Positions 15,248 through 25,890 of a stretch of 64,000 nucleotides of DNA are shown here, one piece after another (positions within the stretch are counted from its first letter, which is position 1; every line of letters begins with the position of its first letter). The notes under the pieces are model-generated. The model was not told the origin of the DNA, ran no database searches, and saw only the letters and a program-made list of their open reading frames with translations. The position numbers and the translations under genes are program-made. The stretch comes from Syntrophales bacterium (GTDB lineage Bacteria > Desulfobacterota > Syntrophia > Syntrophales > UBA2210): assembly GCA_963662405.2 (NCBI GenBank), contig CAXXKT010000001.1, positions 768,001-832,000 of the forward strand, in the 5' to 3' direction.

Positions 15248-16063
15248 TTACCCGTCAAAGAAACCGTTGAGGAATGCGCCAACGCGTTCAAATGCCTCCC
15301 GATCCTGAAGAAAAAACAGGTGTCCCCCTTCGAATAGTTCAAGGCGTGCCTGTAAAATCCTCCCCCGTATCGCCTCGAGGTTGGCGGGAGGGGCAATCCC
15401 GTCATAGCGGCCCCCGCAGATAAAGACCGGCATCCGGAGGGAAAAAAGGCGGTCGAAGGTGTCGTGTCCCTTCCGCGCCTCGATCTGACTCCGGGCACCC
15501 ATTTCCCGCCCCGGGTCATTTCCCCCCACCGTCATGGACTGCTCGGCCTGATCCACGAGTTTTTCAAGTCGTTGAGGGTGGGCCGCCTGCCAGGCGGCGT
15601 CACGACGCGTATCACCAAGGAGAACCATGTGCAGGGCCCGTTCCCGCACCGACAGTGCCTCCATCTCATGAAGTGGATACGAGTCACCCCCGGCGCCGCC
15701 GGAGCTGGTGCATGCCAGCACGAGCCGCTCGACCCGGTGCGGGAACCGAAGGGCAAATTCCTGGGCCACCATGCCCCCGAACGATACCCCCATGACAAGG
15801 CATTGGCCCCACCCCACCGCTGCCAGCAGGGCGTCGGCATCAATGGCATAGTCCGCCATGGTATACGGTGCGGCCGGTTTGTCGGTTTGACCAAGACCGC
15901 GCTGGTCATAGGCGAGGATCTCGAACCTGGTTGCGAGAGGAGAGTCGAAGATAGAGGGTCGCTGCCGCAGATCACCCCCGCTTCCGCCGATGTAAAGCAA
16001 GCGCCGTCCCGTACCATGGATTTCATAGTACATCCGTATGTCACGAACAACTGCGAAGGGCAT
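15248..16063 (-). CDS. Alpha/beta-fold hydrolase
   Basis: DQRGLG, GVSFGG nucleophile elbow, GRYD, GGH. Confidence 0.9.
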   Translation of the reverse strand: MPFAVVRDIRMYYEIHGTGRRLLYIGGSGGDLRQRPSIFDSPLATRFEILAYDQRGLGQTDKPAAPYTMADYAIDADALLAAVGWGQCLVMGVSFGGMVAQEFALRFPHRVERLVLACTSSGGAGGDSYPLHEMEALSVRERALHMVLLGDTRRDAAWQAAHPQRLEKLVDQAEQSMTVGGNDPGREMGARSQIEARKGHDTFDRLFSLRMPVFICGGRYDGIAPPANLEAIRGRILQARLELFEGGHLFFLQDREAFERVGAFLNGFFDG

Positions 16064-16392
16064 GGAGATCCCCTCCCATAGTGCCCATTGTACCGGTGTG
16101 CCGCGGTTCGTTCACCGTTGAGGATAAATCGTTGCGGTTGATTCACATAGGCTGGCTGTGTCTGAAGATGGTAAACGATTCCCCCCTGTTCAGTAACCCG
16201 CGGCCATCTTTACTGTAACAGGGCACCGAGGAAGGTGTCAACAGGAAACGGCCAGTGTAAACAAGCGGTATAAGAACGGTATGCAGGATATCAGCCCGGA
16301 ACATTCCCTACGCAGGCGCTCCGCCGCGCTCAACGGGTGCAGGCACGTCTCAAGGTCCATGGTGACACGTTGAGTCTTCTAATCCTCTGTCG

Positions 16393-16418
16393 GGATCCAT
16401 TTTTGGATCCATTTTTGG
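16393..16418. repeat. Tandem 12-bp direct repeat (GGATCCATTTTT x2) abutting the -35 box
   Basis: ggatccattttt ggatccattttt gg. Confidence 0.8.
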
Positions 16419-16419
16419 C

Positions 16420-16448
16420 TTGACAACAGGGAAAAGCTGTGTTTCTAT
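16420..16448 (+). promoter_or_regulatory. Probable sigma70 promoter of trpL-trpB2
   Basis: TTGACA 16420-16425, 17-nt spacer, weak -10 TTCTAT preceded by TG. Confidence 0.5.
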
Positions 16449-16475
16449 GAGCAGAAACAGGGCGGCAGGATTAAC

Positions 16476-16544
16476 ATGGCATACGGAACTGAAGATTCTC
16501 GGTTTTTCTGGTGGTGGCGGGTCTGCATCGATCTGTCCACATAG
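16476..16544 (+). CDS. trpL: Tryptophan attenuator leader peptide (MAYGTEDSRFFWWWRVCIDLST)
   Basis: 22 codons with TGG TGG TGG at 16509-16517; RBS GCAGGA; followed by antiterminator/terminator hairpins and a trpB-family gene. Confidence 0.88.
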   Translation: MAYGTEDSRFFWWWRVCIDLST

Positions 16545-16562
16545 ATGCCGGAGCATGTGTCG

Positions 16563-16593
16563 GCCGTGGGCGGAGAGTCCCACGGCTTTTTTT
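16563..16593 (+). terminator. Attenuator terminator 1
   Basis: GCCGTGGG-cggagagt-CCCACGGC + T7. Confidence 0.88.
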
Positions 16594-16603
16594 ATTCGTA
16601 TGA

Positions 16604-16638
16604 AACGCCATGGGATCTTCTCATGGCGTTATTTTTTT
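16604..16638 (+). terminator. Attenuator terminator-like hairpin 2
   Basis: AACGCCATGGGA-tct-TCTCATGGCGTT + A + T7. Confidence 0.7.
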
Positions 16639-16661
16639 ATTGAATCAAAGGAGGGAATAAT

Positions 16662-18023
16662 ATGAGGCAGGTAAAGGTGTTTTTGAATGAGGAGGAGATC
16701 CCCAGGCAATGGTACAATATCATGGCTGATATGCCGACCCCGATGAGCCCGCCCCTTCACCCGGGAACGGGGCAACCGCTGAAGCCTGAAGATATGGCCC
16801 CGATCTTCCCCATGAACCTGATCGAGCAGGAGATGAGTACTGACCGGTGGATCGATATCCCCGAAGAGGTCCTTGAGAAGTATATGCTCTGGCGGCCGAC
16901 CCCGCTCTACCGGGCATACAATCTGGAAAAGCTCCTCGATGCCCCGGTGAAGATCTACTATAAACATGAAGGGGTCAGCCCCGCCGGTTCACACAAGCCG
17001 AATACCGCCGTCGCCCAGGCGTATTATAACAAGGCCTTCGGGATCAAAAAGATCTCGACGGAGACCGGCGCCGGCCAGTGGGGGAGCGCTCTGAGCATGG
17101 CCTGCAACATGTTCGGCCTGGAATGCCGGGTCTTCATGGTTCGGGTCAGCTACGACCAGAAGCCGTACCGCCGCCTGATGATGCAGACATGGGGGGCCAA
17201 GTGCTTTCCCAGTCCGAGCGACCTGACCGAGACGGGGCGCAAGATCCTCGCCGAGAACCCCGATTCACCGGGTAGTCTGGGGATCGCCATCAGTGAGGCG
17301 ATTGAAGACGGCGTCGGAAAAGAAGATTCGCGCTATTCCCTGGGGAGCGTCCTGAATCACGTCATGCTCCACCAGACGATTATCGGGCTCGAGGCCCAGA
17401 AACAATTCGACAAGATCGGCGAATATCCGGATGTCGTGATCGGGTGTGCCGGCGGTGGAAGCAATTTCGCCGGGGCGGCCCTGCCCTTCGCACGGGACAA
17501 GATACACGGCAGGGACATAGCGATCATCGCGGCGGAGCCGTCATCCTGTCCGACCCTTACGAGGGCACCCTATGGGTACGATTTCGGGGACCTGGCAATG
17601 ACGACACCCCTCCTCGCCATGTACTCACTCGGGCACGATTTCGTCCCGGCCCCGATCCACGCCGGAGGGCTCCGATACCACGGGATGGCACCGATTGTCA
17701 GTCACCTTGTGAAGGAGCGGGTCATCGAGGCTCGATCGTACCACCAACTCGAGACCTTCGACGCGGGGATCAAGTGGGCACGGTCCGAGGCATTCATCCC
17801 CGCTCCCGAGACGAACCACGCCATTGCGGCAGTGATTCAGGAGGCCCAGCGGGCAAAGGAAGAAGGAAAAGAAAAGGTCATCTTCTTCAACTGGAGCGGA
17901 CACGGGCTGATTGACCTTGCATCATACGACGCCTACCTGTCCGGTAAACTGACCGATTATCAGCTTCCGGACGACGAGATCGAGCGGGCGAAGAAGACCA
18001 TCGGGCAATTTCCCACACCGTAA
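16662..18023 (+). CDS. trpB2: Tryptophan synthase beta chain 2 (TrpB2, PLP-dependent)
   Basis: GSHKPN (PLP Lys), [27 protein letters not shown]; long N-terminus (WYNI) typical of TrpB2; no trpA adjacent. Confidence 0.95.
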
Positions 18024-18083: not shown

Positions 18084-18344
18084 ATGGATCGATTTGATCA
18101 TCTGGTGCTGCGCTGTCCCCGGCTGGGAGGGGAGGTCACCTTTGCCTACTGCAGGCGCGAACAGGGTGTTCTCCCCTGCCGGATGATACTCCGGTGCTGG
18201 GAGGAATTGATACCGGCGGAGCAACATCTGAGAAGATATCTCTCCGATGAGGAGTGGAACCGCTCGTTCAATGTCCCCCCCAAGGACAAGATGGCTACCA
18301 TCATTGAGATAGCGGATGCCGTACAAAAGCGGAAGGGGATGTAG
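18084..18344 (+). CDS. Small Cys-rich hypothetical protein
   Basis: RCPRLGG..F.YC....LPC..IL.CW; RBS GAGGA; co-directional with trpB2 and rarA. Confidence 0.7.
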   Translation: MDRFDHLVLRCPRLGGEVTFAYCRREQGVLPCRMILRCWEELIPAEQHLRRYLSDEEWNRSFNVPPKDKMATIIEIADAVQKRKGM

Positions 18345-24073: not shown

Positions 24074-24751
24074 TTAGAGACGGGTGTGCCGGGTCCAGCT
24101 CGTGCTGTCCCATGTAGCATCAACCAGAGATGGCGACGGTTCATCGATAGAGGGCGATAGGCCACACTTCAGGGCAAAGTAGCGATGGAAGGCGAGGGAC
24201 GGAGTCAACTCCGGGTGAAAAATCGTCACCAAGACAGCAGCGTTTTCCGCTGCCGCTATATATCCGTCTTGCTCCATCAAAACATCGACATCCTTGCCGA
24301 CGCGGGTAATCTTCGGGGCACGGATGAAGGTGAGGGGAATCGATTCCGGTGCGACACGAGGGATCAGCGCCTCGGCAACAAAGCTGTCCAACTGGCTGCC
24401 AAAGGCGTTCCTGCGGATCTCGATATCGATGAGGGAAAGGAATGTTTCTTCACCGACAACCTTGTCGGCAAGGAGAATCGCCCCCGCGCAGGTCCCCCAT
24501 AGCTTCATACCGCACCGAAAGTTTTGAAGTATCAAAGTCTTGAGGCCAAAGATATCCAAGAGCCGCGCGAGACAGGTGCTCTCGCCCCCGGGAATGATCA
24601 ATCCTGCGAGGTGTGCAAGATCCGAGGATTCCTTTACCCGAATGGTGGCAATGCCAAGGCGTTCCAAGTGGTCGAGATGCTCGACAACATCCCCCTGGAG
24701 ATCGAGCACACCGATCGTATCTCGCCCCGCCAGTGCCACGCCATCTACCAT
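24074..24751 (-). CDS. pdxT: PLP synthase glutaminase subunit
   Basis: GVLDLQG, IPGGEST, GTCAG, RNAFG, FIRAP, FHPEL. Confidence 0.95.
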
Positions 24752-25626
24752 CCACGTGTTGCCAAGATTTGAGTCTCAGGGATATCGGAAATCTCGATTC
24801 CCGGCATGGCACCCCCTAATTCCATCGACGCTTCCAAGACCTTTGCCGGGTCACTGTAGTATGCTGTTGCCTTGACGATTGCCGCAGCGCGTTTCACCGG
24901 GTTCTCCGATTTGAATATCCCTGATCCGACAAATATCCCGTCGCAGCCGAGTTGCATCATCAGGGCCGCATCCGCCGGGGTCGCAATACCCCCGGCCGCG
25001 AAATTGACGACGGGGAGCCGCCCTAACTCCCGCACCTGCAATGCCAGTTCATACGGAAACCCGTTGGCCTTTGCAAAACCGGTCACTTCCTCGACCGGCA
25101 TATGGATGAGTTGTCTGATTTCTCTGTTCACTGTCCGGATATGGCGGACCGCTTCAACGACGTTGCCGGTCCCCGCTTCGCCTTTCGTCCGAATCATGGC
25201 GGCCCCTTCGGCTATACGCCGCAGGCCCTCTCCCAGGTTGCGCGCCCCGCATACAAAGGGAATCGCAAATCGGGTCTTGTCTATGTGACACTCCTCATCT
25301 GCGGGGGTCAAGACCTCGCTCTCGTCGATATAATCAATCTTCAGTGTTTCAAGAATTTGCGCTTCCACAAAATGACCGATACGTGCCTTGGCCATGACGG
25401 GTATCGAAACCGCCTCCTTGATCCGCGCAATGAGTGCGGGGTCCGACATGCGGGCGACACCGCCCTCCTTGCGAATGTCCGCGGGGACACGCTCGAGAGC
25501 CATAACCGCAACGGCCCCGGCCTCTTCGGCAATCCGTGCGTGATCGACGCTGACAACATCCATGATAACGCCCCCCTTCAGCATCTGGGCCAACTGGACA
25601 TTCAATTCATATCTTGTTTTATCCAC
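24745..25626 (-). CDS. pdxS: PLP synthase lyase subunit
   Basis: [42 protein letters not shown] start at 25626 after AGGAGG. Confidence 0.97.
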
Positions 25627-25890
25627 TTCTGTATACCTCCTGCGATTCTCCGCCACAGAAACAATGATACTCGTGCGAAGCTACTTTTATGTATGTTAGT
25701 GAAAACCTCTCCGAGCGTCAAGAATAATGTTGCTCTTCCCAACACATCTCCGGTTTTCCGCCCCCGTGAGCGAAGAGCGGCAGAGCTTGAACCGGCAGGG
25801 CATCGCATGTAAAGGGACGTTTCGGGAAGGGGGCGTCACAATGCCCTGTTCTTTGCCACCTCGGCATACCACCCACCGGTGTGTACCATC

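Follow-up and report, generated by a model that had tools for sequence, protein, structure and literature searches.

In the E. coli trpL attenuator (RF00513), a short ORF carries adjacent Trp codons that overlap segment 1 of an RNA able to fold as helix 1:2, as 2:3, or as 3:4 followed by a U-tract, and a stalled ribosome leads to read-through. The his attenuator of Salmonella and E. coli contains six segments, and a stall flips its three hairpins into two shifted ones, thereby removing the distal terminator. The general mechanism of attenuation is described in PMC10065794. Beyond the enterobacteria, the Bacteroid-trp leader (RF01692; Weinberg 2010, PMC2864571) encodes a Trp-containing peptide, with one member of the published alignment carrying three consecutive Trp codons, and the actinobacterial trp and trpS attenuators (PMC1262725) have Trp-codon leaders in which antiterminator and terminator use one conserved GCC triple; one of these attenuators is found ahead of trpB2A, a C. 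diphtheriae operon. The 5' leader known as rimP-leader (PMC2965389) contains two tandem terminators and may form an antiterminator. Control of trpB2 by a Trp-pathway regulator is known from Methanothermobacter, where the regulator is TrpY (Karr 2008, cited in PMC3729527). The TrpB2 proteins of Thermotoga and Thermococcus are stand-alone enzymes with high indole affinity that have been connected to Trp synthesis and indole salvage.

We analyzed a 64,000-nt stretch of DNA from a Syntrophales bacterium (hereafter, the window) that contains a stand-alone trpB2 gene behind a leader of its own. This leader has in common with trpL the short ORF, the overlap of its Trp codons with segment 1, the three alternative helices and predicted read-through upon stalling; it differs in having three Trp codons, two extra segments, a second terminator and a lone trpB2 as its target. 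With the his attenuator it would share the relay logic, and 22 orthologous leaders lacking a U-tract after 3:4 would be his-like, whereas the trpB2 leader senses Trp, and in the window 3:4 and 5:6 are both U-tailed and built on one shared core. The C. diphtheriae trpB2A genes resemble this locus by name, but there the gene shares its operon with trpA; the accessible part of PMC1262725 describes no tandem terminators. In the rimP-leader the two motifs are inverse, whereas here they have the same core, and the corresponding part of PMC2965389 describes no amino acid leader peptide. TrpY is a protein that acts in an archaeon, in contrast to the ribosome-read RNA switch predicted here in a bacterium.

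Neither of the two Rfam Trp-leader families matches the trpB2 leader, even though it works like trpL. Up to E 5, the RF00513 model (threshold 41 bits) did not match the leader, its only match in the genome being one of 19 bits elsewhere, and RF01692 (threshold 49 bits) had no genome matches at E ≤1. No T-box riboswitch was matched up to E 5 over positions 16050-16750, and the Rfam matches for the leader were at chance level only. In literature on trpB2, attenuation, Deltaproteobacteria, Syntrophus, indolepyruvate oxidoreductase (IOR), aryl acids and tandem terminators, we did not find this leader described; that search reached few subscription papers and did not extend to the comparative surveys of attenuators, and the leader may already be in print.

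Architecture of the trpB2 leader

Every element that an earlier, sequence-only reading had listed for this leader was present at its coordinates (Table 1): the leader ORF with its TAG stop (16542-16544), the run of three TGG codons, the pause helix formed by segments 1 and 2 (-13.4 kcal/mol in isolation), the antiterminator 16532-16540/16566-16574 with its inner helix 16547-16551/16560-16564 (-18.1 kcal/mol), and the terminator 16563-16586 with its T7 tract (-17.2 kcal/mol). The description of trpB2 as stand-alone also held, as it is divergent from the upstream gene (15248-16063, minus strand) and separated from the trp operon by 1.3 Mb. What that reading missed was a second terminator-like hairpin between terminator 1 and trpB2 (16604-16630; 12 bp, -18.1 kcal/mol), which is followed by T7 at 16632-16638. 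Segments 4 and 5 can pair as helix 4:5 (16577-16586/16607-16616; -15.7 kcal/mol), with one C.A mismatch. The 211-nt leader as a whole had a more stable fold than its shuffles (z = -2.78; 1/200 shuffles).

Table 1. Features of the trpB2 leader and the genes that follow it (positions in the window).
Feature	Position	Strand	Basis or remark
Predicted sigma-70-type promoter	16420-16448	+	TTGACA at 16420-16425; after a 17-nt spacer, TG and a weak -10 hexamer (16440-16448)
AGGA, Shine-Dalgarno-like, of leader ORF	16467-16470	+	Sequence; putative function
Leader ORF, 22 aa (MAYGTEDSRFFWWWRVCIDLST)	16476-16544	+	ORF reading; Trp-run uORF in 54/69 loci; frame test
Three consecutive Trp codons (putative sensor)	16509-16517	+	Nearly invariant in 34-sequence alignment
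Segment 1	16514-16523	+	With 2, predicted pause hairpin
Segment 2	16530-16540	+	Pairs with 1 or 3
Segment 3	16562-16574	+	With 2, antiterminator; with 4, terminator 1
Segment 4 with the terminator 1 U-tract	16577-16593	+	T7 spans 16587-16593; segment 4 can alternatively pair with segment 5
Segment 5	16604-16616	+	With 4, predicted relay antiterminator; or with 6
Segment 6 with the terminator 2 U-tract	16619-16638	+	Second hairpin present in 36/38 leaders
Shine-Dalgarno GGAGG of trpB2	16650-16654	+	Outside all six segments
Stand-alone trpB2, 453 aa	16662-18023	+	TrpB2 family models
86-aa Cys-containing ORF	18084-18344	+	Likely co-transcribed with trpB2

The predicted promoter was absent from the list of a consensus scan, and its -10 hexamer matches at 3/6 positions; a TTG[A/C]C hexamer and TG in the same arrangement were found upstream in 18/38 leaders, mostly about 90 nt 5' of the Trp run. 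Just 5' of the -35 box, a tandem GGATCCATTTTT repeat at window positions 16393-16419 forms a small hairpin.

Three other candidate explanations were rejected. An ordinary terminator of the upstream gene does not fit because that gene is divergent, and translational attenuation was dismissed, the Shine-Dalgarno sequence of trpB2 lying outside every helix. A second uORF (16545-16643) was discarded as a part of the mechanism, its start being ATG in 1/8 close leaders (GTG in 3, non-start codons in 4).

Conservation of the Trp codons and of the two hairpins

We compared 69 trpB2 loci from the same order, comprising the best 30 of 41 genomes, 19 loci from a 121-genome sample (in which TrpB2 was found in 105 genomes), and 20 further loci selected so that trpA-negative genomes and families missing from the earlier groups were represented. 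The comparison of upstream regions bore out the proposed leader: a uORF with at least two adjacent Trp codons preceded trpB2 in 38/49 loci of the first two groups (window included) and in 16/20 of the third, or 54/69 overall, and 15/69 had no leader. Two leaders from genus g4 (L016 and L017, in genomes G010 and G024) are decayed, with the Trp run down to one codon, and at L018 and L117 a hairpin-U remnant is kept without a leader ORF.

A GTDB-wide motif scan gave 96 matches, among them 55 before trpB2, 5 before trpE, and 36 without a match to five queries, many of these 36 being chance matches in coding DNA. The 80 matches shown with titles came mainly from Syntrophales, Syntrophaceae and Syntrophobacterales, with some from Aquificota. 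The two-hairpin motif was also seen before trpE in records of Aquificota and Deferribacteres (L135, L153, L177, L183, L196), and two records (L189, L198) have a leader with three Trp codons before an ABC-permease-like ORF.

For 38 leaders picked by RNA motif, 44/49 upstream ATGs were in frame with the Trp run, and in-frame nearby stop triplets numbered 0/34. This contrast between in-frame starts and out-of-frame stops argues that the Trp run is read as codons. It speaks against a reading in which the TGG run is conserved as RNA, the element being a protein- or ligand-sensing switch or encoding a TnaC-like, Trp-induced arrest peptide. Such a reading can point to segment 1, which overlaps the last two Trp codons and is paired in 97% of alignment cells. 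The first TGG, however, lies outside the helix, and in other leaders of the genome that have the same core, the codons suit the pathway of the gene behind them (Tyr/Trp/Phe for DAHP synthase, Val/Leu for ilvB). For an arrest peptide in particular, arrest at the stop would favor termination, and the flanks of the peptide are not conserved. We consider this explanation highly improbable, and we are very confident that the trpB2 leader is a genuine Trp attenuator.

Two hairpins with a common core were present in 36/38 leaders (34 parsed automatically and two set by hand) and, as read by eye, in 14/16 of the second set. The common core of 3:4 and 5:6 probably reflects a duplication. In 22 of the 36 leaders only the second hairpin has a U-tract; both have one in the remaining 14, including the window. 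With a U-tract on the second hairpin only, a relay would be needed to link the Trp codons to the terminator, and these 22 leaders provide the strongest argument that such a relay operates.

In an alignment of 34 leaders, helix 1:2 was paired in 97.4% of cases (with both-side changes at 3/8 pairs), 3:4 in 94.5%, 5:6 in 100% and 2:3 in 92.8%, as compared to 86.6% for the core of 4:5, which had zero both-side changes and whose alignment position 104-140 was unpaired in 12/34. The terminating set (1:2, 3:4 and 5:6) was 96.9% paired, had both-side changes in 8/24 pairs, and beat all 500 shuffles on all five measures (0/500). The antiterminating set (2:3 and 4:5) was 87.2% paired; its covariation score was reached by 3/500 shuffles and its number of pairs with a double change by 160/500. 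As the aligned sequences are kin, these shuffle counts are not probabilities.

These data bear on whether the second hairpin is switched at all. The leader could be a classical four-segment attenuator in which the second hairpin is an unswitched, leaky constitutive terminator or a duplicated RNA-stability element. In keeping with that, 4:5 is interrupted by the C.A mismatch in the window and by two mismatches in each of L007, L008 and L011, its core is free of both-side changes, and leaders L010 and L012, those of G041 and G060, and the iorA leaders make do with a single hairpin. Shuffled second hairpins supported 4:5 in only 6/300 cases, a result we discount, since exchanging hairpins with the same core is a fairer test; when other same-core hairpins of the genome were swapped in, 4:5 formed in 10/21, pairing equally well, which indicates that the complementarity is largely a by-product of the shared core. 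On the other hand, the first hairpin has no U-tract in the 22 leaders above, a hairpin of the stability seen in the window followed by T7 is unlikely to sit passively before a gene, and the sequence of the second hairpin is conserved across families beyond its pairing. On balance, an unswitched second hairpin appears improbable to us, and we favor the relay.

Predicted switching at the two terminators

Folding with mimicked ribosome positions gave a switch at terminator 2. For window RNA cut at terminator 2 with a ribosome on a Trp codon, the probability of pairing was 0.89-0.99 for 2:3, 0.92-1.0 for 4:5 and ≤0.08 for 5:6; with the ribosome at the stop, it was 0.91-0.96 for 3:4 and 0.91 for 5:6. 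At terminator 1 the switch in the window was marginal (stalled: 2:3 = 0.51-0.67 vs 3:4 = 0.32-0.47; 0.22 vs 0.75 with a wider ribosome footprint), a near-balance that arises because segment 2 is able to fold on itself. In full-length window RNA both terminators were folded in every ribosome state, and read-through would thus depend on folding order, with 2:3 and 4:5 forming first.

Across the 36 two-hairpin leaders, the mean probability of 2:3 was 0.89 when stalled and that of 3:4 was 0.89-0.98 at the stop, and 4:5 changed from 0.56-0.69 when stalled to 0.04-0.20 at the stop. In 9/36 orthologs, 5:6 remained dominant (P ≥0.7) even when stalled, such that terminator 2 was not released at equilibrium, and the diverged two-hairpin leader of G046 showed no switching in the folding model.

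The four-segment stall/stop model proposed earlier is thus retained for its trpL-type switching but leaves the second strong terminator unopposed, and 4:5 is both needed and predicted. We propose that when Trp-tRNA is ample, the ribosome would reach the stop and cover segment 2, so that terminator 3:4, backed by 5:6, ends transcription. When Trp-tRNA is scarce, the ribosome would stall on the three Trp codons, 2:3 would pair, and the freed segment 4 would pair with segment 5, leaving neither terminator. TrpB2 would thereby be induced by Trp starvation. Overall, the trpB2 leader is likely a two-terminator relay of this type. Conservation, reading frame, pair counts and constrained folding all uphold the earlier claim of a trpL-type, Trp-codon-sensing attenuator on a TrpB2-class gene; to call this genetic evidence that TrpB2 supplies Trp, as the earlier reading did, is an overstatement, the evidence being comparative and computational.

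TrpB2 and the tryptophan supply of the genome

The trpB2 product is assigned to its class by family models, scoring 655 bits against TIGR01415 (cut-off 518.85) and 746 against PRK12391 (366), compared to 146 against the TrpB1 model TIGR00263 (392). Its best PDB matches are 6hul_B, 4qys_B and 6hte_B. Aligned to 6hul_B, the protein has its PLP lysine at K112 and an arginine, R338, at a position that is Asp in TrpB1, including both TrpB1 proteins of this genome. We take the arginine at this position to be linked to the use of O-phosphoserine. The 86-aa ORF that follows has a homolog after trpB2 in 39/48 loci; it had no NCBIfam or Pfam match, and a terminator scan found no terminator-like site on the plus strand between it and trpB2. 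A gene pair 6 kb downstream of the PLP-dependent TrpB2 (window positions 24074-25656) resembles pdxS/pdxT (PLP synthase) by eye.

The role of TrpB2, which the sequence-only reading had called debated, is less open than this implied: Trp synthesis and indole salvage by TrpB2 are on record (Busch 2014 and Hiyama 2014, as cited in PMC11917138 and PMC11085991), PMC2700814 calls the enzyme indole-scavenging, and PMC1854888 treats TrpB2 classes and the idea, considered weak, of a serine deaminase. Still to be weighed is the source of the indole. The attenuator may be real and relay-like while TrpB2 serves the internal pathway as a partner or back-up of TrpA that catches leaked indole, and the leader alone cannot separate outside indole from indole leaked by TrpA. 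The genome has trpA and two trpB1 genes, induction together with trpE would suit an internal back-up equally well, and we found no full-length tryptophanase-like match that could be another internal indole source (best 43 bits, partial).

Relatives of this bacterium favor an outside source. In the 121-genome sample, 20 genomes had no match to TrpA and none to TrpC (three of them inferred from absence in match tables), absences that rest on incomplete, related assemblies, the window genome itself having TrpA. Of these 20, 18 have trpB2, and 16/18 keep its Trp leader, including all three members of family f8 (96-100% complete). Without TrpA there would be no internal pathway indole, which favors scavenging from outside. 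Furthermore, a Bacteroides TrpB2 studied in cross-feeding aided an E. coli trpA mutant only if it was cross-fed by the wild type (PMC11535334). A purely internal role thus appears the less likely reading, although it carries appreciable weight, and from these comparisons TrpB2 here probably salvages indole, in which case it would condense the scavenged indole with a serine donor.

The genome also encodes a complete trpEGDCFBA operon, likewise behind a leader with three Trp codons. Another TrpB1-type gene, which stands alone and has no Trp leader upstream (C1:2472239-2473456), brings the number of TrpB genes to three. Seven short ORFs with an ATG start and three consecutive Trp codons were found in the genome, and four of them lie before terminators with the same core, upstream of trpB2, trpE, a PaaK-like ligase and iorA. 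The trpE leader (C1:2089076-2089284, L032) contains three Trp codons and two U-tailed hairpins, with a 4:5 fold of -22.5 kcal/mol. A leader with two adjacent Trp codons preceded trpE in 23/23 loci with enough upstream DNA (7/30 were dropped), and 18/23 had a second U-tailed hairpin.

The other two leaders fall in one cluster (C1:2013132-2020030, L031), where one precedes a PaaK-like aryl-acid CoA ligase and the other iorA-iorB-dctPQM (TRAP); the ligase and IorA of this cluster score below equivalog cut-offs. The iorA clade occurred in 18/121 genomes, each of which also has the ligase clade, and a leader with two adjacent Trp codons and one terminator preceded iorA in 17/18. A separate Trp leader precedes the ligase gene in 3/21 loci, as compared to 0/9 for generic paralogs. 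In another genome (G088:C27:253-3400), a long IorA-like ORF (49%; 1197-codon open frame) comes immediately after a divergent trpB2 (62%), with no Trp-Trp leader in the 246 nt available. IOR is otherwise read as fermentative (PMC5817080), and an aryl-acid biosynthetic route is on record for Methanococcus maripaludis (Porat 2004, as cited in PMC4162585). Induction of the iorAB cluster on Trp shortage would fit the biosynthetic direction, making it a candidate for which substrate and direction are predicted.

Double hairpins are not confined to Trp leaders. Five other leaders have them (trpE, DAHP synthase, ilvB, pyruvate:ferredoxin oxidoreductase and a gene behind a Phe leader), with 4:5 folds of -14 to -22.5 kcal/mol, or -14 to -17 kcal/mol for the four non-Trp members. 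In a crude stall model with the ribosome at the last cognate codon, these four showed no switching. The leader before DAHP synthase (C1:2127065, minus strand, L248) is rich in Tyr, Trp and Phe and possibly senses all three aromatics. Near-identical double hairpins follow Val/Leu-rich leaders before acetolactate synthase (C1:1338516, L250) and pyruvate:ferredoxin oxidoreductase (C1:2550651, minus strand, L251). The Phe-rich leader with tandem terminators (C1:2712870-2712940, L249) precedes a secreted protein that resembles an ABC binding protein by eye and had no NCBIfam match at 1e-40. Two more leaders have single terminators with the same core. One is rich in Leu and precedes the gamma subunit of a 2-oxoacid:ferredoxin oxidoreductase (C1:1294263, minus strand, L253), an enzyme that may take part in branched-chain synthesis through reductive carboxylation; the other contains Lys and precedes dapA (C1:499251, minus strand, L252).

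We propose that matching leaders would govern three routes of Trp supply in this bacterium: de novo synthesis by trpEGDCFBA, trpB2, and a ligase-iorAB-TRAP route rebuilding Trp from indole-3-acetate. As a whole, it is quite likely that a relay attenuator precedes trpB2, inducing it on Trp starvation for indole salvage as one of these three routes. We regard as evenly poised the broader proposal that Syntrophales-type anaerobes possess uncatalogued double-hairpin relay attenuators derived from one duplicated core, in at least six leaders of this genome with varied codons, whose Trp members form a three-route regulon of de novo synthesis, indole salvage by TrpB2 with its small partner, and imported indole-3-acetate carboxylated reductively through a CoA ligase and an IOR working in reverse.

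Since the basic attenuation mechanism is textbook knowledge and TrpB2 chemistry is known, the surprise in these findings is limited. A natural two-terminator relay could nonetheless widen the dynamic range of an attenuator, and a Trp leader annotates function, in that the iorAB cluster, usually read as degradative, is likely Trp-making. For the order as a whole, the leader would tie a bacterial stand-alone TrpB2 to Trp starvation, including in lineages apparently without TrpA and TrpC, where its presence points to indole cross-feeding in anaerobic consortia.
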